DNA of 16,884 nt from UHGV virus genome UHGV-0068632; one strand, given 5' to 3'. The notes beneath the pieces are model-generated. The model was not told where the DNA came from and did no database searches. It saw nothing but the letters and a program-made list of their open reading frames with translations. Shown one piece after another: positions 2,585 to 16,847 of this stretch. Made by a program: the position numbers and the translations under genes. Position 1 is the first letter of the stretch. Every line of letters starts with the position of its first letter. This DNA is from a virus.

Positions 2585-4924
2585 ATGGCTACCAGTGTAG
2601 GTACAATTTATTACGAAGTTGATGCAAAAACTGGTCAACTTCTCGTTGCACAACGACAGGCAGACCAGGCCTTTGACCGTATAGAGCGCGGCGCAAAACA
2701 GGCTGACCGCCAGGTAAACACCCTGAAAACATCCATCAAGGCACTGACCAGGGTTATCCATTTGCTAATTGCTGCCGAGGCTGTGCGCCAATTTATGGAT
2801 ATGGCGGAGCAAGCCAAAATGCTTCGCGTAAAAATCAAATTGCTTACAGGTGAAGCGGAGGCAACGGAACGGGTTTTCAACAGACTGAAAGAAATATCAA
2901 AAGAAACAGGCCAAAGCCTCAAGGATACTGGTGCCCTGTGGCAAGGTCTTGCTATATCGCTAAAAAACACATCCGCCACAGAAGGCCAGGTGCTCAACCT
3001 GGTCAGCACGCTGCAAAAACTTGGTAACTTGGGCGGCGTGTCTGCGGAACAACTATCAAACTCCATGCTTCAGTTCCGCCAGGCTATTGATGCTGGCGTG
3101 TTGCAGGCGGAAGAGTTCAACTCAATACGTGATAACACCCCAACAATCATACAGGAAATGGCCCGACAGATGGGGTTATCTATGGGGCAGTTCCGCGCCG
3201 AAATGCTGGACGGCAAGATCACGGCTGAAAGGATGCTCAACGCGATCCAGGCGGCTACGCAGGAAACAAACGAGAAGTTTGCACAGTTACCGCGCACGTC
3301 CGGTATGGCTTTTAATGAGCTTAAAGTCGAGGTGATGGGACTTGTCGAACAACTTGATGATCTTTTCGGCATATCAGATGGCGTTGTGTCAGCTATCGAC
3401 TTAATAACTGGTGGCGTTGAGGGATTAGGTAAAGGCGCAAAATTCGCCGCAACCTGTTTCAATACACTAAAAACGGCTGGCAGTGAGTTTATCGACATGT
3501 TTGATGATGTTGCTGTTAAAGCTGGTGAGGTGGCGGAAGAGATTATCAGGATGGTAACGCCAATCAAAGCGCTAATGGATGGCTACAAATGGATGAAGGA
3601 GATCATTGATAAACGCAAGAATGAGCTAAACAGCAACAACGAAAAGAAATTCGGCCCTACAGTCGGTAAGGTCATGACGTTTGCAAATGACATCAAAAAT
3701 GCGACCGCCGCTTATGATGAGTTTATGCAGAAACAGGGTGAGGCTGATGACGGCAAGATCACCGGATTCGATCAGCCAGTTGGCAAGCCGAAAAAAGGGA
3801 AAAAAGACAAGAAATCTGAAGCTGATCGGCTTGGTGATGAAGGCATAAAAGTATCCGACCAGTACAACAAAGACGCCGCAGCTATGCGCAAAGCGTTAGA
3901 GAACGGCAAGGCCATTGATGCTGCATTCGCCCAGGGTAAAATCACTCTCCTTGAGTACCGCGCCGCGCAAAAAGGGATAGGTAAGGAACTGAAGGAAGAA
4001 TTAGCGCAAATTCCGGTAGATGAATTGCGTGATAAATGGGCGCAAATAGTAAGCCCGATGGATCAGCTTAAAGGTGAGGTTGACCCTATCCAGCAGGTGC
4101 AGAATGAATGGGCCGTCCGTAAGCAAATGCTTATCGACCTGGGCGTTACTGAAGCGCAACAGAAACAGGAACTGTTAGCCTATGAGCAACAGATCCGTGA
4201 TCTGAAGTGGGAACAGTGGCAGGCACAAAGCGATACAAACGGCCTTATCGGTGATTGCGTTAATGGCCTAAAAGGTGGTATGAGCAATGCACTTGTTGGC
4301 CTGTTAAATGGTACTCAATCATTGAGTGATGTTTTTGCTAACTTAGGCAGCAATATCCTCGGGAATATCGGTAACAGGCTTTCAGACATAGCTGCAAACT
4401 GGATAGCAGATCAGATCATGATGGAAACGCAAAGCAAAGCGACTCAGGCAAGTACCACGGCGGGCGCGGTAGCGGCGCAAGGCCAGATTGCTGCGGCGGC
4501 GGCCCCGGCGGCGGCGGCAACAGCGGCGTCAACTGGCGGCGCATGGGCGGCGGCTGGTTCTGCGGCACTCACTGCGATCATGTCGCTGGCTACGTCAATT
4601 TTCGGCGGCGGTCGCTTTAATGGTGGTAGCGTTATTGGTGGCAATATGTACCGCGTAGGGGAACACAACAGGCCGGAGCTATTCCAGACATCTAACGGAA
4701 ATCAATATATGATCCCAGGCGAGAATGGCAGGGTTATTCCTGGGCGTGATATTGGCGGTGGCGGCGGCATTAGTATGCCTGTCAATATCAACATTCAGAC
4801 CACAAACGGATTTAGCGACGAAGACAGTCGCAGACTTGAGCAAACAATGGAACGTGTAGCAATGAAGATGATAACAAGGGAATCACAAAGACCTGGAGGA
4901 ATATTGCAACCGCGCCGCAAATAA
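2585..4924 (+). CDS. Tail tape measure protein, 779 aa
   Basis: Large ORF in the expected position, with RBS gagg 8 nt upstream. Has the mostly helical N-terminal region and the Ala/Gly-rich hydrophobic segment (QASTTAGAVAAQGQIAAAAAPAAAATAAS...) typical of tape measure proteins. Followed by gpM/L/K/I/J homologues. Confidence 0.9.
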   Translation: MATSVGTIYYEVDAKTGQLLVAQRQADQAFDRIERGAKQADRQVNTLKTSIKALTRVIHLLIAAEAVRQFMDMAEQAKMLRVKIKLLTGEAEATERVFNRLKEISKETGQSLKDTGALWQGLAISLKNTSATEGQVLNLVSTLQKLGNLGGVSAEQLSNSMLQFRQAIDAGVLQAEEFNSIRDNTPTIIQEMARQMGLSMGQFRAEMLDGKITAERMLNAIQAATQETNEKFAQLPRTSGMAFNELKVEVMGLVEQLDDLFGISDGVVSAIDLITGGVEGLGKGAKFAATCFNTLKTAGSEFIDMFDDVAVKAGEVAEEIIRMVTPIKALMDGYKWMKEIIDKRKNELNSNNEKKFGPTVGKVMTFANDIKNATAAYDEFMQKQGEADDGKITGFDQPVGKPKKGKKDKKSEADRLGDEGIKVSDQYNKDAAAMRKALENGKAIDAAFAQGKITLLEYRAAQKGIGKELKEELAQIPVDELRDKWAQIVSPMDQLKGEVDPIQQVQNEWAVRKQMLIDLGVTEAQQKQELLAYEQQIRDLKWEQWQAQSDTNGLIGDCVNGLKGGMSNALVGLLNGTQSLSDVFANLGSNILGNIGNRLSDIAANWIADQIMMETQSKATQASTTAGAVAAQGQIAAAAAPAAAATAASTGGAWAAAGSAALTAIMSLATSIFGGGRFNGGSVIGGNMYRVGEHNRPELFQTSNGNQYMIPGENGRVIPGRDIGGGGGISMPVNINIQTTNGFSDEDSRRLEQTMERVAMKMITRESQRPGGILQPRRK

Positions 4925-4927
4925 ACG

Positions 4928-4958
4928 AAACCCCGGTACAATGCCGGGGTTATCTTTT
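4928..4958. terminator. Bidirectional hairpin terminator
   Basis: CCCCGG-tacaatg-CCGGGG at 4931-4949 followed by TTATCTTTT. Lies between the tape measure stop (4924) and the stop of the minus-strand ORF at 4957. Confidence 0.6.
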
Positions 4959-5251: not shown

Positions 5252-5506
5252 TCACTTATGGCAACCGCGAACGCCAGACAATTCATTGAATTTATGGTGT
5301 TCAACAATCACCCACTCTTTCAGATCCTGGCTATAGACTCGCCAGTCTAAATTGGCGCGGAAGGCGTAGCCGTAACCGTCTTTCAATTTTTTGGGTGACG
5401 CATTCTTGTTTAAAAACGCGTTCAAAAGTTCCTTTGCTTTTTTGACTACATGTCCCGGCGCGTTTTTCTGTGCTTTCAGATTTTTGTCAATCGCTACCAG
5501 TTTCAT
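5252..5506 (-). CDS. Basic 84-aa protein, tentatively RelE/ParE-superfamily-like (candidate toxin or mRNA interferase)
   Basis: Complete ORF in the track. Net charge about +9. The segment KKLKDGYGYAFRANLDWRVYSQDLKEWVIVEHHK resembles, by eye, the beta-strand core and C-terminal His/Tyr region of RelE/YoeB/YafQ-type toxins. This is pattern recognition only, not an alignment. Confidence 0.55.
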   Translation of the reverse strand: MKLVAIDKNLKAQKNAPGHVVKKAKELLNAFLNKNASPKKLKDGYGYAFRANLDWRVYSQDLKEWVIVEHHKFNELSGVRGCHK

Positions 5507-5523
5507 AACTCACCCCATCATCC

Positions 5524-5678
5524 TTAGTTAAGTGCCTTCAGGAAGAAGTCCCGGTATTCATCTTCTTTTGCATTCATCATGAATTGACCGTATTTGAATG
5601 CGTCGTCGAAACCCTTAACGATTGCTATTTCCACTTGTTCGAATGCGTTGTTTAGCATTACCACTACATAGCGTTTCA
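5524..5678 (-). CDS. Small hypothetical protein, 51 aa (MKRYVVVMLNNAFEQVEIAIVKGFDDAFKYGQFMMNAKEDEYRDFFLKALN), possible partner of the 84-aa protein
   Basis: Strong RBS aggagg 6-7 nt upstream of the ATG at 5678. The track's longer 76-aa version starting at 5754 runs through the promoter motif and has no RBS, so the internal start is preferred. Lies 17 nt upstream of the 84-aa gene. Confidence 0.55.
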
Positions 5679-5744
5679 TTTTGGGCCTCCTTCGTTGGTA
5701 CTGCTTTTCTTCTTGCTTTCTATATACATCTTGATGCGTGATAT

Positions 5745-5830
5745 GTGAAGCCATTTTGTAAACTAGCTATAATCATTGTGATGAAGATCTCATTTTTTGC
5801 GTAGAATCGCGTAAAAGTATATACAAAATG
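5745..5830. promoter_or_regulatory. Divergent promoter/operator region carrying the shared motif pair
   Basis: gtgaagccattttgta at 5745-5760 is identical over 16 bp to 2528-2543. A perfect TATAAT lies at 5768-5773 and a GATC at 5786-5789. The motif recurs in reverse orientation as tatacaaaatg at 5820-5830. Confidence 0.4.
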
Positions 5831-5848: not shown

Positions 5849-6202
5849 ATGCCTGAAGTGTTCCGATGGACACCACAAAGAAGCTACAGCGTAAACAGTG
5901 AGCCTAACGTGTCTGTCATTAAGCTGGGTGATGGGTATGAACAGCGCCAGACAAAAGGGATTAACCCTTTACTTGATAGCTACAGCCTGGTTTTTAAAGG
6001 CACAAGCGCCGGATGCGGTGACGCCGGAAACGTGGCGCTCCAAGTTGACGCATTTTTAAGGGCGCGTTGCGCGGTCGAGGCGTTTTACTGGACTCCATCA
6101 ACTGACGGGGTGCAAAGGCTTTTTGTATGCAGAAAGTGGAGCATGACGAAAGACGGCCCGGTATGCACGCTAAACGCAACTTTTGAGCAAGTTGTCAATT
6201 AA
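5849..6202 (+). CDS. Minor tail protein, lambda gpM-like, 117 aa
   Basis: Matches my recollection of lambda gpM along its length: FRW near the N-terminus, GDGYxQR, WTP, CxKWS, and the C-terminal FEQVVN. RBS ggggga 4 nt upstream. Confidence 0.9.
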   Translation: MPEVFRWTPQRSYSVNSEPNVSVIKLGDGYEQRQTKGINPLLDSYSLVFKGTSAGCGDAGNVALQVDAFLRARCAVEAFYWTPSTDGVQRLFVCRKWSMTKDGPVCTLNATFEQVVN

Positions 6203-6215
6203 TGGAGGTGTCAAT

Positions 6216-6401
6216 ATGTATGCTATTTGTGTAGTGGACCGCACGGGCGCTTTTACATTGTTTGACGACTATGAAATCAACGATCTTACTGTAAAGGCTG
6301 ATAATGGCGAGATCTGGTATCTTCATGATGTTGGTGACGGGTATGTCGGATGCAGATCGAGAGAGGGTAGGGAAGTTTTATTTTTACTTGATGGCGTATA
6401 A
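6216..6401 (+). CDS. Small hypothetical protein, 61 aa, between the gpM-like and gpL-like genes
   Basis: RBS ggaggtg about 6 nt upstream of the ATG at 6216. The track start at 6183 has no RBS. No counterpart in the lambda M-L junction, so probably accessory. Confidence 0.55.
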   Translation: MYAICVVDRTGAFTLFDDYEINDLTVKADNGEIWYLHDVGDGYVGCRSREGREVLFLLDGV

Positions 6402-6406
6402 ACACG

Positions 6407-6433
6407 ACCCCGCGCGAAGCGGGGTTATTATTA
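6407..6433. terminator. Bidirectional hairpin terminator
   Basis: ACCCCGC-gcgaa-GCGGGGT at 6407-6425 followed by TATTATTATT. The same 19-mer occurs as an exact reverse complement at 14606-14624. Confidence 0.6.
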
Positions 6434-6547
6434 TTCCATTTCCATTAACGCTATATTTTCTGCTATCGTTTTCCAGTCCAGATCTACAGCATGAACACCA
6501 AATACTATCAATCCCATTGCGATTAGTGCTAAAACTTCGATTTTCAT
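6431..6547 (-). CDS. Small putative membrane protein, 38 aa (MKIEVLALIAMGLIVFGVHAVDLDWKTIAENIALMEME)
   Basis: Found by hand. RBS gtgagg 6 nt upstream of the ATG at 6547. The hydrophobic N-terminal segment predicts a single transmembrane helix. The stop overlaps the terminator tail. Confidence 0.45.
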   Translation of the reverse strand: MKIEVLALIAMGLIVFGVHAVDLDWKTIAENIALMEME

Positions 6548-6638
6548 AATCAACCTCACTTAATTAAGAAAGGCATAAACGATGGCAATCGCGCCAGCCA
6601 CTACCAAAACATTTCGATCACTTCGTCTACTTTATTGA

Positions 6639-6842
6639 TTAAGGTAACTCCACTTCGTTAAATGTAACAAGCACCCCTTGATTTTCTTTATTTATAATTA
6701 TGAAGGCATTAATTGAAGGCAGACATCTTTCCACGCGGTAAACGTCACCAATATCTAAACTGTAATATTCTGTTAATTCTCTATTGTTCCCTTTAGCAAA
6801 ACCCGTAAACCTAACCATTTTTTGACCGTCGTACTTTAACAT
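6639..6842 (-). CDS. Hypothetical protein, 67 aa, cassette 3
   Basis: ORF in the track. RBS agga 6 nt upstream of the ATG at 6842. Lies 9 nt downstream of the preceding gene's stop. No family recognised. Confidence 0.65.
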   Translation of the reverse strand: MLKYDGQKMVRFTGFAKGNNRELTEYYSLDIGDVYRVERCLPSINAFIIINKENQGVLVTFNEVELP

Positions 6843-6850
6843 ATACAGTC

Positions 6851-7099
6851 CTATAGGTTATCACGCAGATAATTAACGCCTTTGTCAGTGACGAATGAGT
6901 GATTAACCTGGTTTTCATCCGTCATGATGATGAATGACTTTTCCTGTAGGTATTTCGCTTTTGGGTACAGCGTTAAACAGACCTGGTACAGTATCCCGCG
7001 CTCAATCAGCAAATCAATAAATTCGTGCTCATGATAACCGACGAGGCGGGCGGCTTGTTTCAACGTGTACACATAATCGCCGTGATTGCGCCGCCCCAT
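6851..7099 (-). CDS. Hypothetical protein, 82 aa, possible helix-turn-helix DNA-binding protein
   Basis: ORF in the track with RBS aaggcgg upstream. The segment YTLKQAARLVGYHEHEFIDLLIERGIL has the spacing of an HTH motif of the excisionase/AlpA-like type. Judged by eye only. Confidence 0.6.
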   Translation of the reverse strand: MGRRNHGDYVYTLKQAARLVGYHEHEFIDLLIERGILYQVCLTLYPKAKYLQEKSFIIMTDENQVNHSFVTDKGVNYLRDNL

Positions 7100-7628: not shown

Positions 7629-7739
7629 CACCTCCGCGCCATTTTGTTAACTGTGCTTCCGTTTGAGTAAAATATACATATTGTATAAACCGCGATCAAT
7701 CCATTTTGGTATGATTTAGCGTGACGCAGATCACAAAAT
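7629..7739. promoter_or_regulatory. Divergent promoter/operator region carrying the shared motif family
   Basis: Motif variants at 7629-7641 (ccattttgttaac), about 7669-7681 (catattgtataaa) and 7701-7715 (ccattttggtatgat, containing the extended -10-like TGGTATGAT). agatcacaaaat at 7728-7739 is identical to 15004-15015. Confidence 0.4.
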
Positions 7740-7753
7740 CAGAAGGTGAGAAA

Positions 7754-8458
7754 ATGCGCAATATACCTACAGAGATGATTATTGATTCCGTGGACGCTGG
7801 TGTGGGCGCGGTGATTGACTTGTTCGAACTGGACTTGTCGCCCCTGGGTGGCGAGGTTATCCGCTTCCATTCCGGCGCGAATGGCTATTACGGCCCGGTT
7901 ATCTGGAAGGGATTAACTTACAACAGCTACCCGATCGAGGCTACTGGCTTCGAAATGAAAAACGAGGGCGTTTATTCGCGGCCTCAAATGGTTGTAGCCA
8001 ATATCGGCGGGCTAATCACAGGGATGAATAACGACTTCAACGACCTGCGAGGAATGAAGGTTACGCGCCGCCAGGTGGAAGTAAAATACCTGGACGCCGT
8101 TAACTTCCCAAACGGCAATCCAGACGCAGATCCATCTATTGAGGCTGTATCTTTTTACGTCGTGGAGGCCATGAGCGAGGAAACAGCGGATCAGGTGCAA
8201 TATGAGCTGTCAACGCCAATTGATGCTGATAAGGCCGTTATCCCTGGGCGCACCATCCTTGCTGACGTTTGCCAGTGGCAATACAGAGGCGACGGGTGTA
8301 TGTACGCTGGCGGACCAGTAGCAAACGATAAAGACGAGCCGACAAGCGATCCTAAAGCCGACAGATGCAGCCACCGTCTAAGCGGTTGTCGTTTGCGTTT
8401 CCCGCGTCCAAATCCGTTACCGATTTCCTGTTTCCCTGGTTCCAGTAAGGTAGGTTAA
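7754..8458 (+). CDS. Minor tail protein, lambda gpL-like, about 234 aa
   Basis: Extended match to my recollection of lambda gpL: TGFE, SRPQ, GMxxDxxxL, VTRRQV, FLDAVNFPNGN, AVxPGRxxLAxxCxWxYRGDxC, CSHRLSGCRLRF. The ATG at 7754 follows gaaggtgag; the track's start at 7721 is a GTG inside the conserved leader motif. Confidence 0.9.
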   Translation: MRNIPTEMIIDSVDAGVGAVIDLFELDLSPLGGEVIRFHSGANGYYGPVIWKGLTYNSYPIEATGFEMKNEGVYSRPQMVVANIGGLITGMNNDFNDLRGMKVTRRQVEVKYLDAVNFPNGNPDADPSIEAVSFYVVEAMSEETADQVQYELSTPIDADKAVIPGRTILADVCQWQYRGDGCMYAGGPVANDKDEPTSDPKADRCSHRLSGCRLRFPRPNPLPISCFPGSSKVG

Positions 8459-8460
8459 TC

Positions 8461-9192
8461 ATGGTAATGGAAGACAAAATGTTGCGTTATGCCGCCGCGC
8501 ATCCGTTTGAAGAAGTTTGCGGACTGGTAATAGATAACGAATATTTTTACCCGTGCGCTAACGTGTCTGAAACGCCCTACAACAGCTTCAAAATTTCGCC
8601 GGACGATTACATCAAAGCTGACGAATTGGGCGTTATAACCGCCGTTTTTCACTCTCACGTTGATGATATTCCGGTATTGTCGGCACGGGATCGACAACAG
8701 CAGGTTATTTCAGGACTACCCTGGCTTTTGTATTCAGGCGGAAGGATCAGGAAATTCCGTCCGGTAGCGCACCTGTTAGGCAGAAAATTTGAACACGGGA
8801 AAACAGACTGCTACGCGCTTTTCCGCGACGCCTATCACCTTTGCGGCGTGGATCTGCCTGACTTCGAGCGCCTTGATGGGTGGTGGTTGCGTGGTGAAAA
8901 CCTGTATTTAAAAAACTTGCCTCTAAACGGGTTTTTCCAGGTTGACGCTAAAAGCATACAGCCTGGAGATGTAATTATCCGGCAGCCGTTTAAAGGCGCG
9001 GACCCATGCCACGCGATGATTTACCTGGGCGATAACACTGTTTTGCATCATGACAATGCCGGACTGCTAAGCCGCCGCGAGCAAATGCGGCCCGCTTATG
9101 TTCGACAAACGCATTCAATATGGAGATCTGATAAATGCTCAAATTTAGATTTACGGGCAATCTTCGAAGATATTACAGCAAAGTGTGTTTAA
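8461..9192 (+). CDS. Tail assembly protein, lambda gpK-like, with MPN/JAB and NlpC/P60-like domains, 243 aa
   Basis: N-terminal EEVCGLV plus HSHVDD...S..D, a JAMM-type metal-binding motif. C-terminal half has a conserved Cys (KTDCYALFRDAY) and His residues (HAMIYLGDNTVLHH), as in NlpC/P60 hydrolases. Lambda K has the same two-domain layout. Confidence 0.9.
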   Translation: MVMEDKMLRYAAAHPFEEVCGLVIDNEYFYPCANVSETPYNSFKISPDDYIKADELGVITAVFHSHVDDIPVLSARDRQQQVISGLPWLLYSGGRIRKFRPVAHLLGRKFEHGKTDCYALFRDAYHLCGVDLPDFERLDGWWLRGENLYLKNLPLNGFFQVDAKSIQPGDVIIRQPFKGADPCHAMIYLGDNTVLHHDNAGLLSRREQMRPAYVRQTHSIWRSDKCSNLDLRAIFEDITAKCV

Positions 9193-9665
9193 ACGTTGAA
9201 ACGCCAGCGCAAGGACTTCGCTTGTTGACCGCGCAGAATCAGGAATTCAAGAAGGCGTTTTTAAATACACCTTTGCGTTTACGAATTTCCGGGAAAGATT
9301 ACGACGAAAAGACCGCGCCCGCTGCGGTTAATAGCAAATATCCAGATGGGACTACGGTAATTATTGCGCCAATAGTGGAAGGTGGTATTGCAGGGATCGG
9401 TGTGGTCGGTTGGATTATGATCGGAATATCAGTTGTTAGTGTCGCATTTTCTATTTTCATGTCTCGCAACATGAAGGTGAAAACATCATCAGAAAGCGCA
9501 CAGGATAACACCATAACAAACAACAGTTACACCAGCATAGAAAACAGGGTGGGCCAGGGTAGACCAGTGCCAATTTTATTGGGTGAAATGAAAGTAGGTT
9601 CAAACGTCGGATCGTTAGGCATAGACACAACAAACAATAAAGACGCCTTAGACGTTGTAAGTTAA
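9135..9665 (+). CDS. Tail assembly protein, lambda gpI-like, 176 aa
   Basis: N-terminus LKFRFTGNLRRYY aligns with lambda I (ICLYGDLQRFG). Has the Gly/Ala-rich hydrophobic stretch and LLGEMKVGSNVGS, corresponding to lambda LYGEMRVGSRVVS. Overlaps the 3' end of the gpK-like gene by 58 bp in another frame, as in lambda. Confidence 0.85.
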   Translation: MLKFRFTGNLRRYYSKVCLNVETPAQGLRLLTAQNQEFKKAFLNTPLRLRISGKDYDEKTAPAAVNSKYPDGTTVIIAPIVEGGIAGIGVVGWIMIGISVVSVAFSIFMSRNMKVKTSSESAQDNTITNNSYTSIENRVGQGRPVPILLGEMKVGSNVGSLGIDTTNNKDALDVVS

Positions 9666-9679
9666 CAGGAGAAATAACC

Positions 9680-12600
9680 ATGAGTAGCGGCGGCGGCAAA
9701 GCAAAAACACCAACTTTAATTAACGATAATCTATATCACAAACAGTTTTATCGTGTACTCGACATTATTTCAGAAGGTCCGATTTATGGTCCTGTTAATA
9801 CCAATGCGCCATTAAACAGCGTAATGCTTAATGACACCCCTGTAACTGACGCGAACGGCAATACCAGCATCCCCGGTATTAGCGTAGCGTGGCGCAATGG
9901 TACGATAGATCAATCACCGATTAACGGTTTTAACGCCATTGAATCAACCGTTATTGTTAACGCACAGGTTAAACACGATACACCAATAATCAGGACCGTT
10001 TCCGATCCTAACGTAAACCGCGTTCGCCTGAATATCGGCGTCGATTCACTTGTACAATCTGACGAGCAAAGCAATCAACATAACACATCGGTTATGATGA
10101 TGATTGACGTGAAGCCTTCGTCTTCTTCTACGTGGACGCTTGTTAAAGACGTTACTATAGGCCCAGGTAAGATCAGCGGAGAATATCTTGAAGCGCATAT
10201 TATCAATGCACCAGATGAAAAACCGTTTGATATTCGCGTTCGCCGTGTAACCGCTGATAGCACAAGCGATCTGTTGCAGAATGATACGCGATGGAGTAGC
10301 TACAGCGAAATAATCGACGATAATTTGTCTTATCCTCACACCGCTGTAGCTGGCGCGGTAATTGACCATGATCAGTACGCTGACACGCCTACCCGCACCT
10401 ATCACCTTCGCGGGCTGATTGTTGATATTCCTGATAACTACGACCCGGAAAAGCGCACTTATTCCGGTTTGTGGCTTGGCGGCTTCAAACAGGCGTACAC
10501 CAATAACCCAGCATGGATCTTCCGCTATCTGGTTAAAAACGAGCGTTTCGGCCTTGCTCGTCACGCTGGCTATATTGACGTTGACGACGGCGCATTATAT
10601 ACGCTTTCTCAATACTGCGACCAGTTGGTTGATGATGGCTACGGCGGCCTTGAGCCTCGCATGACGCTTAACGCTTACATCACAGAGCAAATGAGCGCCC
10701 GCGACTTACTGGACAATATCGCCGGGATGTTCAGGGGTATCGCGTTATGGGACGGGCAACGCCTTACCGTGATGATTGATGCACCACAAGACCCGATCGC
10801 CACCATTACAAATGCAAATGTCGTTGATGGCGCGTTTACTCGTTCAAGTATCGCCCGCGCAGAATGCTACAACGCCGTGATCGTATCATGGACTGACCCG
10901 GAAAACGGATGGGAGCAATCAAAAGAGTATGTAGCAGACGATGAACTGATCGCCCGTGATGGTTACAACGAAACCACGTTAGAGGCGTTCGGGTGCACAT
11001 CACGCGGGCAAGCATACCGCGCGGGCAAGTGGCTGATAGAAACAGCAAAACGCGAGCCGTCAAAATTCACGTTTAAAATGGCGCGTGACGCGATTCACTT
11101 TACGCCAGGGGATATTATCGAGATACTCGACAATAACCGCGCAGGCGCTCGTTTAGGCGGCCGCATCGTTGCGAACAACGGCAAAGTAATAACGGTAGAT
11201 AAGGTTGACGCCAATTATATCGCCGCTGGGGATACAATCAGCCTTCTTGATAGCGATGGCAAGTTTAAAAAGCATCAGATCACCGGGGTGAGCGGAAACA
11301 AAATCACACTGGCGGCGGCCCCGTCATGGATTCGAAACGGCACTGTTTTTGCTGTATCCACTGAATCAGCAAAACCCGTTTTGTGCCGGATCACCAGTGT
11401 AGCCGAAACAGAAAATAACAGCGTGTACACCATCGAGGCCGCACAGCACGACCCGAACAAGCAAGCAGTGGTCGATGAAGGCGCAATATTTGAAGTCAAC
11501 AATGACACGCTTAACCATTTCCGCGTGCCGAACATTGAAAATCTGAAGGTGGTAAACATTGGATCGGAAACAATTCAATGTCGCGCCACATGGGAAACGC
11601 AGACAACAACGCATCGTATGACATTTGAGATCCGCATATATAATGCAGATGGTGCGGTGGTTAAAAGCTATGAAACAACGAAATACAGTTATGATTTTTA
11701 TGGCATTGACGCTGGCGTGTATTCTTTAGGGGTTCGCGGAAGAAATGACACTGGCATGAAGGGCGCGGAAAGTATTGTGGATCTGGTTATTGGTGCGCCA
11801 GCAGCGCCAATAGGTGTTAACTGGGTACCAGGTGTATTTCAGGCTACCGTATACCCGATAAGTAAGACAACGCTAACCACTGATACAGCGTATGAATTCT
11901 ACTATGCAGGGGAAAACCAGATCACAGATCCGGCAAAAATAACCACGGCGGCACAGTTTACCGGGCGCGGGTATCAGTGGACGTTCGGCGGAATGAACAC
12001 GGGCCATACTTATTACGTTTATGTGCGTACACGTAATGCTTTTGGCGTGTCAGACTTCGTTGAAGCATCAGGTAAGCCGACAGAAAATTTTGATGAAATT
12101 AGCGATTACGTCACCAAAGACGTGATGAATTCCGAACAATTTAAAGAAATGGTGGGCGACATTAAGGATCTTGGCGATCGCACTGACATTATCGAAAGTG
12201 CAACTCAAGACCTTAAAACAGCTACTGATACCCTAAGCGGAATAACTGAAGGCTTAAGAACTGATACTGATAATTTAATTACAGAAACAGAATCAATTAA
12301 AGCTGATACTGATTCCCTTAAAAAAGACACTGAAGACCTTTACAAGAAAGTCGAAGAAAACGCCGATGAAATAGGTAAACATGAGGTAAGAATTGACTCA
12401 TTAGAGGTATCAAGCGAAAACGTAGATAATGAACTGGCACAGACAAAAGCAAGCCTACAAAACGCATCGCTTGCTCTTATTAATAATTCGCTTGCTCAAA
12501 CTAATACCAGAAGAACGCTGACAGCTCAGATCAAAAACGTGGATTATGAAACTAAGGCGCAAATAGATCGCATTGATAACGTGATTGTCAGTGAAAAAGA

Positions 12601-14599
12601 AGCAAGAGCGGAGGCAATGGAGACAATTACCGCCGAAATCGACACGATGGATAAAAACATCAAAGGTGAGATTGCGCGCGTAGATACTGCCATTGCCAAT
12701 GAGAGCCAGGCAAGGGCTGATGCCATCAGTGAAGTTAGCGCAAACATTGACGCACTTGATAGTAAAACAGATGCCAGTGTTAATCGTCTTGATCAAGCTA
12801 TCGCAGATGAGGCCAGCGCACGCGCACAGGCTATCAGCAATGTCAATGCGAGCATGACAAATCTTGATAACAAGGTTACAAGCAACGTTTCTAGACTTGA
12901 TCAGGCAATAGCTGACGAATCAAGCGCAAGAGCAGAAGCCGATGATCAGTTAATAGCAAAAAGCGAAAAACTTGATGGTGATCTCGCTATGGCAAGGGCA
13001 AGCCTACAAAACGCTTCGCTTGCTCTCATCAATAATACATTGTCTCAGACAAAGACAAGGCGCACTCTCACAGCGGAGTTCAAACGCGGACAAAGTGAAA
13101 CTAAAGCACAAATTGACCGTATTGATAATGTCATTACTGACGAAAAACAGGCAACAGCGGAAGCGTTTGAAACTATCACAGCAGAAATGAACACGATGGA
13201 CTCAAACATTAAAGGAGAAATATCACGATTAGATAAAGTGATCGCGACTGAAACGCAAGCAAGATCTGAAGCTATAAGTAGTGTTAATGCAAGCATAAAG
13301 ACGCTAGAAAGCGACACTGAAGCCAGCGTTAACCGTCTTGATCAGGCAGTTGCTGACGAGGCCAGCGCCCGCGCACAAGCTATCAGCGGAGTAAATGCAA
13401 GCATCAGCACGCTTGATAGCAAGGTTACAAGCAATGTGACCCGTATCGACAAAGCTATTGCAGATGAGACGCAGGCCCGCACAGACGCAATAAGCAACCT
13501 TAACTCATCGCTTACCAGTACGATTAATTCTAAAGTATCTGAAGTATCAACAGCACTTTCTACGCATGAAGCATCAAGCGCGGAAAAATTCAGCCAGATC
13601 TCAGCGTCTTTCGAAGCTGTAAACTCAAGCATCACGGAATGGTCGCAGACCATGACAACGGCGGACGAGGCATTATCAACCAAAATTGATCAGTTAACAG
13701 TAACCGTTAATGGGAACACAACAGCGATCGAGACGACATCGAAAGCGTTAACCGACTTCAAAGGTAATGTTGATGCGTCATGGTCAATCAAGATTGCTAC
13801 TGATAACAACGGCATGAAATACGCTACAGGTATGTCGCTTGGCCTGACTGGTAGCGGGACTAACGTTCAATCGCAGTGTATTTTCCTCGTTGACCGCTTC
13901 GTGTTAATGACCGCAGCAAACGGCACATATACAACGCCTTTCTATGTGTCTAATGGTGCAATGTATGTGAAAGAAGCGTTTATTAAAAACGCATCAATAG
14001 GTACAGCTAAAATTGCAGATGCAGCCATTACTATGGCTAAAATTGTTAATGAAATAAAATCATCAAACTATGTTGCTGGTTCTAAAGGTTGGAGGATAAC
14101 ACAAAGCGGATCATCAGAATTTAACGATGTTGTGGTAAGGGGCGAAATCCATGCTAATAGCGGTAAATTCAAAGGAACTGTAGAAGCTACATCCTTTGTT
14201 GGTGATGTCGCATCTACTAACGTTATACCGCAATCATCATTCCCTGGGACAAGTACAAGCGGATCTCGATCTGTTACGAAGACGTATAAAGATTCATCAT
14301 CAAGCTCGCTTTCGAAAACAGTTTTCGTAATGATTCCTTACCATCTTACTTATTATACTTATTCAGGATCATCAACAATAAAAGTAACAATTGATATTAA
14401 TGGCAATAGCAAAACATATAACGTAGTAAGGGCGGCATCATCGCCTCAATTCGGATTTACGGTATCACATTGCGTAACTGGGATTACTGCTCAAACAGTT
14501 ACGATAAAAATAACAGAGGAATACACCAACACCGGAACATCAGCAGAAAGAAGGCCAGGTCTTGCACTTGTTACAAGAAGCTCAGGATCATGGTCATAA
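9680..14599 (+). CDS. Tail tip / host specificity protein, lambda gpJ-like, 1639 aa
   Basis: Collinear similarity to lambda J over the N-terminal roughly 800 aa (for example SEGPIYGPV, YHLRGLIVDIPDNYDPEKRTYSG, LSQYCDQLVDDGYGGLEPRMTLNAY, FGCTSRGQAYRAGKWLIETA). Followed by FN3-like segments, a roughly 480-aa repetitive coiled-coil region and a distinct C-terminal domain. Confidence 0.95.
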   Translation: MSSGGGKAKTPTLINDNLYHKQFYRVLDIISEGPIYGPVNTNAPLNSVMLNDTPVTDANGNTSIPGISVAWRNGTIDQSPINGFNAIESTVIVNAQVKHDTPIIRTVSDPNVNRVRLNIGVDSLVQSDEQSNQHNTSVMMMIDVKPSSSSTWTLVKDVTIGPGKISGEYLEAHIINAPDEKPFDIRVRRVTADSTSDLLQNDTRWSSYSEIIDDNLSYPHTAVAGAVIDHDQYADTPTRTYHLRGLIVDIPDNYDPEKRTYSGLWLGGFKQAYTNNPAWIFRYLVKNERFGLARHAGYIDVDDGALYTLSQYCDQLVDDGYGGLEPRMTLNAYITEQMSARDLLDNIAGMFRGIALWDGQRLTVMIDAPQDPIATITNANVVDGAFTRSSIARAECYNAVIVSWTDPENGWEQSKEYVADDELIARDGYNETTLEAFGCTSRGQAYRAGKWLIETAKREPSKFTFKMARDAIHFTPGDIIEILDNNRAGARLGGRIVANNGKVITVDKVDANYIAAGDTISLLDSDGKFKKHQITGVSGNKITLAAAPSWIRNGTVFAVSTESAKPVLCRITSVAETENNSVYTIEAAQHDPNKQAVVDEGAIFEVNNDTLNHFRVPNIENLKVVNIGSETIQCRATWETQTTTHRMTFEIRIYNADGAVVKSYETTKYSYDFYGIDAGVYSLGVRGRNDTGMKGAESIVDLVIGAPAAPIGVNWVPGVFQATVYPISKTTLTTDTAYEFYYAGENQITDPAKITTAAQFTGRGYQWTFGGMNTGHTYYVYVRTRNAFGVSDFVEASGKPTENFDEISDYVTKDVMNSEQFKEMVGDIKDLGDRTDIIESATQDLKTATDTLSGITEGLRTDTDNLITETESIKADTDSLKKDTEDLYKKVEENADEIGKHEVRIDSLEVSSENVDNELAQTKASLQNASLALINNSLAQTNTRRTLTAQIKNVDYETKAQIDRIDNVIVSEKEARAEAMETITAEIDTMDKNIKGEIARVDTAIANESQARADAISEVSANIDALDSKTDASVNRLDQAIADEASARAQAISNVNASMTNLDNKVTSNVSRLDQAIADESSARAEADDQLIAKSEKLDGDLAMARASLQNASLALINNTLSQTKTRRTLTAEFKRGQSETKAQIDRIDNVITDEKQATAEAFETITAEMNTMDSNIKGEISRLDKVIATETQARSEAISSVNASIKTLESDTEASVNRLDQAVADEASARAQAISGVNASISTLDSKVTSNVTRIDKAIADETQARTDAISNLNSSLTSTINSKVSEVSTALSTHEASSAEKFSQISASFEAVNSSITEWSQTMTTADEALSTKIDQLTVTVNGNTTAIETTSKALTDFKGNVDASWSIKIATDNNGMKYATGMSLGLTGSGTNVQSQCIFLVDRFVLMTAANGTYTTPFYVSNGAMYVKEAFIKNASIGTAKIADAAITMAKIVNEIKSSNYVAGSKGWRITQSGSSEFNDVVVRGEIHANSGKFKGTVEATSFVGDVASTNVIPQSSFPGTSTSGSRSVTKTYKDSSSSSLSKTVFVMIPYHLTYYTYSGSSTIKVTIDINGNSKTYNVVRAASSPQFGFTVSHCVTGITAQTVTIKITEEYTNTGTSAERRPGLALVTRSSGSWS
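12449..13546 (+). repeat. In-frame tandem duplication (2 x 549 bp, 183 aa each) inside the gpJ-like gene
   Basis: Unit 1 begins gcaagcctacaaaacgcatcgcttgctctt at 12449 and unit 2 begins gcaagcctacaaaacgcttcgcttgctctc at 12998. The proteins ASLQNASLALINNSLAQTNTRRTLTAQ... and ASLQNASLALINNTLSQTKTRRTLTAE... are collinear. Each unit holds three shorter repeats of about 36 aa of the RLDQAIADEASARAQAIS type. Confidence 0.8.
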
Positions 14600-14606
14600 A
14601 AAATAA

Positions 14607-14632
14607 CCCCGCTTCGCGCGGGGTTTTCTTTT
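14607..14632. terminator. Bidirectional intrinsic terminator between the J-like gene and the lipoprotein gene
   Basis: CCCCGC-ttcgc-GCGGGG at 14607-14623 followed by TTTTCTTTT. Lies 8 nt after the J-like stop codon, and the minus-strand lipoprotein stop overlaps the T-tract. Confidence 0.65.
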
Positions 14633-14879
14633 AGTAGTTAGCTACACAATTCGACGGGCTACCTATGCGGCGCATGTTGTGATCGAGTTCATGACACCAT
14701 TGACCAGTATATGGCAGTTTTTCAGTGTCATATACAAGATGACCATTAGCATCATAGACGATTTCTTGTGGAATCACTCCGCTATTTGGCAGGTTATGCA
14801 ATGCAGCTTCTTTGTCAACAGCGCAACCAGTAAGAGCAACAGCCGCAGCGAATAAAACCACTTTGAACATGTTTTTCAT
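14631..14879 (-). CDS. Small outer-membrane lipoprotein, 82 aa, in the Cor/Llp position (candidate receptor-blocking superinfection exclusion protein)
   Basis: N-terminus MKNMFKVVLFAAAVALTGC has a signal peptide and lipobox L-T-G-C with Ala at +2. RBS gagga 6-7 nt upstream. Encoded convergently just downstream of the receptor-binding J-like gene, where T1/phi80-type Cor and T5 Llp genes are found. Assigned by position and type, not by sequence homology. Confidence 0.7.
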   Translation of the reverse strand: MKNMFKVVLFAAAVALTGCAVDKEAALHNLPNSGVIPQEIVYDANGHLVYDTEKLPYTGQWCHELDHNMRRIGSPSNCVANY

Positions 14880-14975
14880 TTTTTAATCCTCGTTCTTGTT
14901 AGCTCATCCGGTTCATCCGGTGGCTTAAATATCCGACAAAACCACATTTCGTATATTGATATAAATCAATAAATA

Positions 14976-15023
14976 CATTTTGTATAAGTCAAAAATGTAA
15001 CATAGATCACAAAATGGTAGAAT
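14976..15023 (+). promoter_or_regulatory. Candidate promoter and conserved leader for the tail fibre gene
   Basis: cattttgtataa at 14976-14987, catagatcacaaaat at 15001-15015 (GATC at 15005-15008), and the extended -10-like TGGTAGAAT at 15015-15023, about 34 nt upstream of the ATG at 15057. Confidence 0.45.
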
Positions 15024-15056: not shown

Positions 15057-16847
15057 ATGATTTATACAACGGGAACAATTGCCATTAACGGCAATACTGT
15101 TACAGGCACGGGAACAAACTTTTCCGCGCCGCTTTCTCTCATCCGTGTAGGTTGCACGCTCATTGCCATTAGCAATCCTATCCAGATCTTTACCATCACA
15201 GAAATTAAGAGCGGTACTGAACTGTCAGTGACGCCAGCGGCTAACCCTGCAATTGCTGCCGGGGCAAAATTCAGCATTCTGCTTTCTGACTCTATCTCAG
15301 TTGATGGGCTTGCCCAGGATGTAGCGGAAACACTTCGTTTTTATCAGGAAAAAGAAGACGAAATATCCAGCGCAATAGATGGCAGCAATATTGGCTTAGG
15401 TCCAGAGCCGCGCGATTGCGTCGATATATCAGGCGATCCGTCTTCTTACGTTGGCTTTTTGCGCATAAAGGAAACGACTAAGGGTTTTCCTTCTGTAGCG
15501 GCTGGTGAATCATTTTTGAGTGGATTTATCTGTCAACGAGACACGACGCCTTCATATACAGGCGTCTTTGTCGGTTGGGCTACGCGATCACTTTATACGT
15601 ATACATGGGTCGCAACATCAGGTCCGAACTGGACACGACACGCAAGAAAAGATGAGGTGGATAGGCTTGTTCAAAGAACAGGAGAAACTCGCGTACGCGC
15701 TCAAAACGCAAATAAATTCCTTACCGTCTATGATTCAGGATCGTGGGGTTATTATGACTCAGAGGCTAGTAAATGGCTACCGCTTCCAGTTCTTGCTGGA
15801 GGCACTGGTGCGGGAAACGCAGAAGAAGCAAGAAATAATTTAAATCTTGGTGAAAGCAACGCGGTTAAATTCAAAAACCTTACGTTAATAGGGGCGCTAG
15901 ATGCAAATTTAGGCATGCTCGTAAAAACTGGAAGAGACTGGAATACTCAGCACACTGACAATATCCAAAAATTTATACCAATGGCAGGAAGCACAAACGG
16001 ACCCGCCGGAGCAATGGTACTCGGTGGCTTCCATGTGCAATACAGCACAAATTACGCTGTGCAATTCGGGGGTCGAAATTCCGGTTTTTGGGGTAGAACA
16101 ATTGAAAACGGAACAGTTCAGGAATGGCGTCAACTAGCTACGCTTAACACATCCGGTCAAAAATGGACTGCCGGTCAGCATTTTGTGACGACAAAAATTA
16201 ACTCTTATGATTTCACAAGACGTTTAACTATCGATGTGATAGAAAACGCAAAAACAAACGCACGGTTACGCTTATGGGGATCAGAAACAAGGCAGTCCGT
16301 TTTAGAATATGGACTCTCGAACGCTGAAACCGATGAGTATAATACATATGGCTTTTATTGCCAGCTTAACCCAGACGGAGTAATTAGTTTTCAGGTTAAC
16401 GGCGTAGTAAACTGCACAGCAGTTAATCAGACTTCAGATCGCGATCTGAAGGACAACATTCAGGTTATAGGTGATGCAACTGAAGCAATCCGTAAAATGA
16501 ACGGGTACACCTACACCCTCAAGGAAAACGGCCTGCCTTACGCTGGCGTTATCGCTCAAGAGGTAATGGAGGCGCTGCCGGAGGCTGTGGGATCGTTTAC
16601 TCATTACGGTAAAGCATTACAAGGCCCGACCACTGACGGCAACGAGCTACGCGAGGAAACGCGTTACCTCAATGTTGACTACGCTGCGGTGACTGGTTTA
16701 CTTGTTCAGGTGGCACGCGAAACAGATAACCGCGTCACCGAACTGGAGGAAGAAAACGCCAGCTTACGAGCTAACATTGCCGTCATGGATGAGCGGATCA
16801 CAAAACTTGAAGCGCTTGTCAGGCAGTTAACCGGAAGCGAAGAATAA
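15057..16847 (+). CDS. Tail fibre protein with C-terminal intramolecular chaperone (peptidase S74-like) domain, 596 aa
   Basis: RBS ggag 9 nt upstream. The C-terminal roughly 135 aa (TSDRDLKDNIQVIGDATEAIRKMNGYTYTLKENG...AGVIAQEVMEALPEAV...) matches the conserved self-cleaving chaperone module of endosialidase and T5 L-shaped fibre proteins, and ends in a coiled-coil (LEEENASLRANIAVMDERITKLEALV). Confidence 0.85.
   Translation: MIYTTGTIAINGNTVTGTGTNFSAPLSLIRVGCTLIAISNPIQIFTITEIKSGTELSVTPAANPAIAAGAKFSILLSDSISVDGLAQDVAETLRFYQEKEDEISSAIDGSNIGLGPEPRDCVDISGDPSSYVGFLRIKETTKGFPSVAAGESFLSGFICQRDTTPSYTGVFVGWATRSLYTYTWVATSGPNWTRHARKDEVDRLVQRTGETRVRAQNANKFLTVYDSGSWGYYDSEASKWLPLPVLAGGTGAGNAEEARNNLNLGESNAVKFKNLTLIGALDANLGMLVKTGRDWNTQHTDNIQKFIPMAGSTNGPAGAMVLGGFHVQYSTNYAVQFGGRNSGFWGRTIENGTVQEWRQLATLNTSGQKWTAGQHFVTTKINSYDFTRRLTIDVIENAKTNARLRLWGSETRQSVLEYGLSNAETDEYNTYGFYCQLNPDGVISFQVNGVVNCTAVNQTSDRDLKDNIQVIGDATEAIRKMNGYTYTLKENGLPYAGVIAQEVMEALPEAVGSFTHYGKALQGPTTDGNELREETRYLNVDYAAVTGLLVQVARETDNRVTELEEENASLRANIAVMDERITKLEALVRQLTGSEE

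Follow-up and report, generated by a model that had tools for sequence, protein, structure and literature searches.

Two copies of a probable two-way terminator hairpin in the tail module of an mEp021-group phage, with loop flips at such hairpins among relatives

The window, that is, the whole stretch of 16,884 nucleotides analysed here (UHGV virus genome UHGV-0068632), is the tail module of a temperate siphophage belonging to the mEp021 or “mEpimmI” group of coliphages. It shares 93.5% identity with Escherichia phage MagusPhagus and about 85% with mEp010, mEp013, mEp021, mEp044, mEp515, and mEp554. The core genes lie on the plus strand: the major tail protein gene (102-578), the tape measure gene (2585-4924), the M-like minor tail protein gene (5849-6202; PF05939), a gp70-like gene of 61 aa downstream of the M-like gene (6216-6401; phrog_3249, function unknown; homologous to mEp021_70), the L, K, and I genes (7721-9665), the J-like gene for a central tail fibre or host-specificity protein of 1639 aa (9680-14599), and a tail fibre gene (15057-16847).

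Accessory ORFs on the minus strand are interspersed between these core genes. They include a ParE-like toxin ORF (5252-5506), a KilAC/ANT-like ORF (6851-7099), and several others without assigned function. To the right of the gp70-like gene, a variable minus-strand cassette (6427-6878) carries the gene for a small hydrophobic protein of 38 aa, membrane-bound or signal-like (6431-6547), together with a 67-aa ORF (6639-6842). The 38-aa protein has no match in Pfam or PHROG. At the equivalent position, mEp021 has an unannotated 45-aa ORF whose product matches it with 79% identity over 33 residues, and the small membrane proteins of these two types of locus differ only at the C-terminus. Facing the J-like gene is the gene for Lpp, a lipoprotein of 82 aa with the lipobox LTGC (14631-14879; phrog_12984, 4e-27). 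Superinfection exclusion by the Lpp proteins of this group is an experimental finding: Lpp021 and Lpp010 exclude their cognate phages (PMC11893012). The phage group also encodes Erf-type annealing proteins and NinB/NinG.

Plus-strand and minus-strand genes converge at four junctions, and each has one perfect GC-rich stem-loop between the two stop codons. At the junction of the gp70-like gene and the small membrane-protein gene (site 1), the hairpin occupies 6407-6425, with the stem ACCCCGC/GCGGGGT and the loop GCGAA on the plus strand. The gp70-like stop codon (6399-6401) lies 5 nt before it, and that of the 38-aa protein gene (6431-6433) lies 5 nt from its other side, inside its T-rich tail. 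At the junction of J and lpp (site 2), the hairpin at 14606-14624 has the loop TTCGC on the plus strand and GCGAA on the Lpp strand, and its stem reaches 8 bp over 14605-14625; the J stop codon (14597-14599) lies 6 nt before it, and the Lpp stop codon (14631-14633) is again in the T-rich tail. The gene context given for both copies in the original prediction, a plus-strand gene meeting a small minus-strand gene whose stop lies in the hairpin tail, is therefore correct. The third hairpin (4929-4951; AACCCCGG-TACAATG-CCGGGGTT) is of the same design, occurs as a single copy, and lies at the convergent junction after the tape measure gene. The fourth (1301-1317; GCCCGG-TAGAT-CCGGGC) lies where the plus-strand gene 620-1309 meets the minus-strand gene 1335-1655.

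The hairpins of sites 1 and 2 are copies of one sequence. A scan of the window finds ACCCCGCGCGAAGCGGGGT at 6407-6425 on the plus strand and its exact reverse complement at 14606-14624, which bears out the prediction of a 19-bp hairpin present twice in opposite orientation. With up to 3 mismatches allowed, these are the only 2 matches to the 19-mer in the window, where 0.01 would be expected by chance, and none of 200 shuffles reaches 2 matches. The pair also forms the longest inverted repeat of the window (33 nt, 88% identity, arms 8,166 nt apart). Exact identity between the copies covers 23 nt (ACCCCGCGCGAAGCGGGGTTATT; ...GGGGTTATT) and extends beyond the hairpin solely on the 3' side of the GCGAA reading; on the 5' side of that reading, copy 1 has G and copy 2 has A. 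The claim that identity continues into the flanks holds on this 3' side, and the proposed 24-mer beginning with aaccccgc is true for copy 2 only. The repeat is real and non-random.

Several features mark both hairpins as candidate intrinsic terminators. All four readings (two sites, two strands) fold into a stem of 7-8 bp with a 5-nt loop, and the predicted RNA dG is -16.1 (plus) and -16.3 (minus) kcal/mol at site 1 and -16.0 (plus) and -19.7 (minus) kcal/mol at site 2. The z values range from -2.6 to -5.7, and between 0 and 5 of 200 shuffles per reading fold as stably. With 6 G-C pairs among the 7-8 bp, the stem is GC-rich and the loop short, as is typical of an intrinsic terminator. The U-tract is clean at site 2 on both strands (UUUCUUUU; UAUUUUUUAU), where the tails read UUUCUUUUAG (plus) and UAUUUUUUAU (minus). 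At site 1, the tails UAUUAUUAUU (plus) and CGUGUUUAUA (minus) contain interrupted T-runs, which count as a U-tract only under a lenient scan rule (5 T in 8). Read in the lpp sense, site 2 comes closest to a canonical terminator, and a consensus scan classes all four readings as terminator-like. Both sites also have the layout of a bidirectional terminator: converging stop codons flank them at a distance of 5-6 nt, and the stem is preceded by an A-run and followed by a T-run. The sequence is AAAAATA-stem-TTTCTTTT at site 2 and, as a weaker case, AAACACG-stem-TATTATT at site 1.

Existing annotations of relatives already imply a terminator. In the mEp021 record, the site-1 homologue is annotated as a terminator on both strands (TERM_11/TERM_12). 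The same homologue is listed as an ARNold terminator in the GenBank records of mEp010, mEp013, mEp044, mEp515, and mEp554, and the site-2 homologue in those of mEp010, mEp013, mEp044, and mEp554 but not mEp515 (in mEp010, the annotated homologues are T17/T18); all of these annotations are computational predictions. The GC-rich stem, T-rich tails, convergent stops, and annotated homologues together support the word “terminator” used in the original prediction, as far as sequence can do so, and both hairpins are likely to be two-way intrinsic (Rho-independent) terminators. The annotated bidirectional terminators of the mEp relatives are alike in their perfect GC-rich stem, short loop, A-rich and T-rich sides, converging stops, and genomic position. 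The difference is that here one 19-mer serves two junctions of one genome. This double use of one terminator sequence draws no comment in the mEp records or in PMC11893012, which mentions “terminator” once, for the early region.

As a two-way terminator, each hairpin would stop minus-strand accessory transcription (of Lpp and the small membrane protein) from running antisense into J and into gp70/M. It would also close or attenuate the plus-strand unit, unless a Q-like late regulator makes the polymerase resistant to termination. The L-K-I-J genes and the tail fibre gene lie downstream of the hairpins, so termination on the plus strand would have to be bypassed by a Q-like antiterminator or offset by internal promoters. 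Termination at site 1 may be inefficient because its T-runs are interrupted. According to PMC4824070, a terminator too near a translated gene is open to masking by the terminating ribosome; ribosomes at stop codons 5-6 nt away could mask the present hairpins as well.

The orientation of the two copies is a matter of the loop. The stem ACCCCGC/GCGGGGT is its own reverse complement, so that a perfect palindrome leaves orientation to be carried by the 5-nt loop alone. Read on the plus strand, the site-1 loop of the window is GCGAA, as it is in MagusPhagus, mEp010, mEp044, three further loci (L128, L129, and L130), and the majority of IMG/VR contigs. TTCGC, or a sequence one base away from it, is found in mEp021, mEp515, mEp013, mEp554, L110, and L122-L126. 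Both site-1 flanks are homologous between this TTCGC group and mEp010, mEp044, and L128-L130, and in the comparison of L122 with mEp010 little besides the loop differs within ±25 nt. Seventeen genomes have both copies; as the site-1 loop is flipped in relatives, the copies are direct in 6 of these 17 and inverted in 11. In the light of these comparisons, “inverted” describes one of two interchangeable, labile states of a 5-nt loop.

The hairpin itself is widely conserved at both sites. Relatives were sampled among IMG/VR loci by their gp70-like protein and Lpp as anchors, independently of the 19-mer. At site 1, the hairpin is present in 33 of 38 gp70-anchored loci long enough to read, with the loops GCGAA (24 loci), GAGAA (3), TTCGC (4), TTCGT (1), and TTCTC (1) on the gp70 strand; 2 more distant relatives have the same stem with a CGGA loop, and 4 loci from the most distant relatives are without the hairpin. 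Of 17 Lpp-anchored loci, 15 have it at site 2, with GCGAA (12 loci), GCAAA (2), or a stem variant (1) on the lpp strand, and 2 loci with distant Lpp homologues have a different hairpin. Stem changes are rare (3 cases), and the loop variants are single-base changes. None of the loop and stem variants (GAGAA, GCAAA, ATCGC, TTCGT, and a G>T stem change) is common to both sites of one genome, and ongoing gene conversion that keeps the copies identical is rejected on this ground.

Loop flips are also found at the terminator of the tape measure gene. This hairpin reads a-CCCCGG-CACAATG-CCGGGG-c in L107 and L108 and g-CCCCGG-CATTGTG-CCGGGG-t in L109, where the whole 21-mer, including its mismatched outer pair, is inverted between homologous flanks although the hairpin is single-copy. 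In a second type of tape-measure terminator, the loop is TAT in L101, L105, and L012 and ATA in L027. These flips point to inversion of the hairpin in situ: during evolution, the loop might have been turned by a template switch at replication or by exchange between the hairpin arms, and in the proposed model it would be neutral for termination. Because the tape-measure terminator has flipped without a second copy, gene conversion from site 2 is less convincing as the sole explanation of the flip at site 1. It is a possible source in mEp013 and L126, because 16 nt beyond the hairpin also match site 2 there.

The hairpin-loop flip-flop is well known in plastomes (PMC12928735, which cites Kim and Lee 2005), and in E. 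coli and T4, template switches at palindromes are an established phenomenon (PMC7202029). The plastid flip-flop and the quasipalindrome template switches of E. coli and T4 likewise involve a short perfect inverted repeat with the loop found both ways and the flanks unchanged, as is the case for three separate hairpins among the present close relatives. In contrast, the phage stems are only 6-9 bp long, and the hairpins are predicted transcription terminators. A word search of the open literature finds “loop inversion” and “hairpin inversion” only in plastome papers and never with intrinsic terminators, which is no proof of absence. The one mildly new element seems to be that terminator loops have undergone micro-inversion repeatedly in close phage relatives; its occurrence at three different hairpins suggests that template-switch events at terminators are common enough to be seen at this short evolutionary range. 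Were the pattern general, the flip-flop of loops in intrinsic terminators would make up an unrecognised class of replication-template-switch mutation in phages and bacteria, and it could serve as an inexpensive marker of such switching. Two copies of a perfect-stem hairpin “in opposite orientation” are poor evidence for an invertible segment, because their orientation consists of 5 loop bases that flip alone.

Mosaic breakpoints near the hairpins raise the question of whether recombination might be their main business. Homology of the window with 8 loci (MagusPhagus and 7 others) stops exactly at 6426 and resumes at 6873/6879, with 6427-6878 replaced by other sequence. At site 2, 8 loci become homologous from 14596-14599 onward. 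On its right, the same site-1 hairpin adjoins at least 5 different flanks, each with its own cassette, and several J 3' ends abut the same unit of Lpp plus hairpin. Such edges are what would be seen if the hairpin were primarily a recombination “joint” for the exchange of accessory, receptor-binding, and exclusion modules, with termination secondary or coincidental. However, breakpoints are equally frequent at the plain gene boundaries 6551/6552 and 6850, where there is no hairpin, as in the usual phage mosaic after selection for intact genes. In a different phage, CSP1C, whose Lpp is 57% identical overall, the hairpin lies inside a shared patch that runs from the fibre 3' end to the Lpp C-terminus, not at the edge of the patch, and arms of 8 bp are very short for homologous exchange. 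A primary role in recombination is thus rather unlikely. A broader suggestion, equally tentative, is that the terminator hairpins of this phage family might be evolutionary “joints” and more than passive punctuation: their loops would undergo recurrent micro-inversion (at three independent hairpins), and exchange of accessory cassettes, genes for exclusion lipoproteins, and receptor-binding ends, both within phage groups and between them, would prefer these points.

The arrangement resembles known cassette systems. In lambdoid phages, a moron, a concept of Juhala and Hendrix, is an extra gene with its own promoter and terminator between core genes. The present loci are alike in having variable, terminator-bounded minus-strand accessory genes inside the tail operon, with breakpoints at gene or terminator edges; variable presence is seen both in the replaced segment at site 1 and at site 2, where the Lpp type and the terminator differ in mEp021 and mEp515. 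Unlike in morons, the site-1 hairpin stays with the core gp70-like gene while the neighbouring cassette varies, and the cassette promoters are putative; a scan for promoter consensus sequences picks up a single weak site on the minus strand (7699-7671), with nothing upstream of lpp. A receptor-binding gene with a convergent gene for an exclusion lipoprotein is also the layout of oad/llp in T5 and of cor in phi80, T1, and N15. These systems share with the window a small opposite-strand lipoprotein gene directly after the host-specificity gene. The Lpp of mEpimmI phages is closer still, as its exclusion is experimental for this very group (PMC11893012) and the patch of fibre end, hairpin, and Lpp end is common to CSP1C. 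What differs from the oad/llp, cor, and Lpp systems is that here a terminator lies between the genes and that a second copy of it lies 8 kb upstream, beside the unrelated small membrane-protein gene.

The 19-mer is specific to two junctions of this phage group. There are exactly 2 copies in the complete MagusPhagus genome and 1 in mEp021, and the other strong hairpins of these two phages (about 10 per genome) are all different. In IMG/VR, the exact 19-mer is found in 38 stretches, of which 37 match the window and represent this phage group, the exception being L009. Among 185,579 species, one representative genome each, it occurs in 51 scattered, mostly non-enteric, mostly GC-rich genomes, with no enterobacterial match. 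These 51 unrelated matches fit the sporadic independent occurrence of a short GC-rich palindrome. The original prediction had asked for further copies in the genome and its relatives, and had allowed that the hairpin could be a generic terminator of many unrelated gene ends; the genome census, the IMG/VR scan, and the species scan rule this out. A dispersed repeat of the REP or MITE kind is likewise rejected, as it would have many copies. A related design is found elsewhere, for instance as CCCCGC-CGAA-GCGGGG after the tail sheath gene of Vi01. The hairpin design is favoured, and it is the exact repeat within one genome that is special.

In mEp013 and L126, sites 1 and 2 share AACCCCGCTTCGCGCGGGGTTTTCTTTTAGTAGTTA, a piece of about 37 nt that aligns directly and not in inverted orientation. 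It comprises the hairpin and, from the minus-strand gene, the last codons and 3' UTR. A segment with the lpp 3' end and its terminator may thus have been copied to site 1 at some time, or a segment of site 1 to site 2. The site-2 hairpin goes with the 3' end of lpp. The most likely reason why two of the four junctions have one 19-mer in common would then be an old terminator duplication. Alternatively, the two copies might have reached a favoured terminator design independently, by convergence and without any duplication. Unrelated phages do have near-identical designs (Vi01 is one, and matches at E<=1 come from 324 phage records), the frame AACCCCG...CGGGGTT recurs in the 4929 hairpin, and the exact 19-mer is present in the 51 unrelated bacterial genomes. 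Against convergence, all 19 positions are identical, including the loop, in genomes whose other strong hairpins all differ, and in some relatives 16 further nt beyond the hairpin, which belong to the 3' ends of the minus-strand genes, are also similar. Duplication is the likelier account, and convergence is improbable.

A common origin through an ancient duplication is thus probable for the hairpins. The original prediction had extended such an origin to the two accessory insertions, and the comparison of flanks that it proposed supports the hairpin half of this idea, with 23 nt identical in the window and, in mEp013 and L126, about 37 nt that align directly. The cassettes themselves do not share this origin. 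Comparison of the small membrane protein with Lpp shows no relationship (E = 5.5), and homology of the two accessory proteins is rejected.

The RNA hairpin might also work at another step than polymerase release, mainly as a protector of the RNA 3' end or a stop for processing that stabilises the upstream mRNA. The weak U-tracts of site 1 would be compatible with such a role, as would the reliance of late transcription in this group on a Q-like antiterminator (PMC11893012) and the bypass of short-stem terminators by processive antitermination that is described in PMC10325885. However, site 2 has a canonical U-tract on both strands, most of all for lpp, and antitermination is not expected for minus-strand accessory transcripts. 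Stabilisation as the main function is therefore doubtful, at a level similar to convergence, and it does not exclude two-way termination, since one hairpin could serve both roles.

Inversion of the tail genes was a further proposal of the original prediction, in which the two copies would recombine and invert the 8.2-kb L-K-I-J block, or at least mark rearrangement junctions. The repeat is real and inverted in the window, and the Erf-type annealing proteins and NinB/NinG of the group might assist such exchange. Natural genomes give the proposal no support. Each of about 45 related loci has its HSPs on a single strand, and among 5,426 complete E. coli genomes the predicted inversion junction (at >=80% coverage) is found 0 times, as is the deletion junction expected for direct copies, while the native sites are found 17 and 9 times. 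The flank combinations in IMG/VR are all native. An invertible segment would occur in both orientations in nature, which is not the case in these loci and E. coli genomes, and no dedicated invertase or recombinase is found in or beside the segment, whose only genes are L, K, I, J, and small accessory ORFs, some ANT/KilAC-like and others without assigned function. The identity of 19-23 bp is at or below the minimal efficient processing segment for RecA-dependent exchange in E. coli. Inversion would also put essential tail genes antisense to the late transcript, and in the 6 of 17 genomes with direct copies, exchange would delete L-K-I-J; either outcome would destroy the tail operon. As a fixed event, inversion of L-K-I-J is largely refuted, and recombination of the copies to this end is very improbable.

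Pentaloops of the form G-N-R-N-A resemble the boxB loops of lambda and P22. An N-like protein is present in this phage group (PMC11893012), but the GCGAA hairpin is most implausible as a boxB-like site for the N-like antiterminator Gp17, because the group has its three nut sites in the early region, with boxB loops rich in adenine (PMC11893012), no boxA-like sequence lies near either of these hairpins of the late tail region, the loop flips or changes (CGGA, GAGAA, GCAAA) without loss of the hairpin, and a search of the whole window against Rfam 15 at the gathering score gives 0 matches. A d(GCGAAGC) mini-hairpin register was also considered and rejected, as it conflicts with the longer 7-bp stem predicted by the fold.

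For the annotation of mEpimmI-type phages, the tail module can be read as plus-strand core segments that alternate with minus-strand accessory cassettes, with a two-way hairpin at each convergent junction and a common motif at each divergent one. This motif, CATTTTGTATAA, occurs 9 times in the window against 2.9 expected, and 8 of the 9 occurrences fall in the four divergent intergenic regions. It sits just upstream of the tape measure, M-like, L, and tail fibre genes, a distribution that lends some weight to internal promoters as a possible way to offset termination on the plus strand.

The hairpin of site 2 (14606-14624), which lies between the tail-fibre gene J and the exclusion lipoprotein gene lpp, has a counterpart in phages of another type. 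In Escherichia phage CSP1C (PQ202980.1; positions 1274-1600 of locus L155), a tail-fibre 3' end, a CCCCCGC-GCGAA-GCGGGG hairpin and an Lpp C-terminus form a single patch that is also found in Cronobacter phage CSP1; neither phage is of the mEpimmI type. The DNA of this patch is nearly identical to that of the site-2 variants in mEpimmI phages, even though identity between the Lpp proteins is just 57%; such a pattern suggests that a module for receptor binding and exclusion has been exchanged horizontally.

The J-like gene itself (9680-14599; 1639 aa) contains an internal 300-nt direct repeat (12412-12711 and 12961-13260; 70% identity; 549-nt spacing) encoding recurring 'LDQAIADE..ARA.AIS.VNAS' segments. 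Homology with relatives is lost at about 12810-12940 and regained at about 13204-13609, later still in some loci, which marks the repeat region as a mosaic hot spot.

At site 1 (hairpin 6407-6425), the window's 38-aa membrane-protein gene has a homologue in mEp021, an unannotated 45-aa ORF (MKIEVLALIIMGLIVFGVHAADWDW...YINY; locus L002 38074-38211, minus strand; 42729-42866 in the record), whose last codons and 3' UTR are similar to those of lpp. An accessory cassette among the tail genes holds an ORF of 82 aa (6851-7099, minus strand) whose product has a KilAC/ANT antirepressor domain (PF03374, 2.3e-6); this ORF is kept in every relative examined, homology being regained at 6850-6879. Within the tail gene cluster, a ParE-like toxin domain ORF (5252-5506, minus strand; PF24732, 1.2e-7) and the ORF of 76 aa immediately upstream of it, likewise on the minus strand (5524-5754), may constitute a toxin-antitoxin pair.

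The points at which plus-strand tail genes restart past a minus-strand cassette are divergent intergenic regions carrying the 12-nt motif CATTTTGTATAA, often arranged as inverted pairs, which occurs nine times in the window against 2.9 expected (at least nine in 0 of 200 shuffles). Eight of these copies fall within the four divergent regions (locations 2505-2575; 5752-5830; 7677-7688, also 7639-7712; 14945-14987), and CATAGATCACA is common to regions A and D (positions 2555 and 15001). A promoter or operator shared by these regions is the probable reading; the tail cluster would then be divided into several regulated transcription units.

Single-copy terminator hairpins of relatives show loop micro-inversions. 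The tape-measure terminator (homologous to window 4929-4951) reads a-CCCCGG-CACAATG-CCGGGG-c in L107 and L108 but g-CCCCGG-CATTGTG-CCGGGG-t in L109, an inversion spanning the entire 21-mer; elsewhere, AAGGCCGCT-TAT-AGCGGCCTT in L101, L105 and L012 corresponds to an ATA loop on an identical stem in L027.
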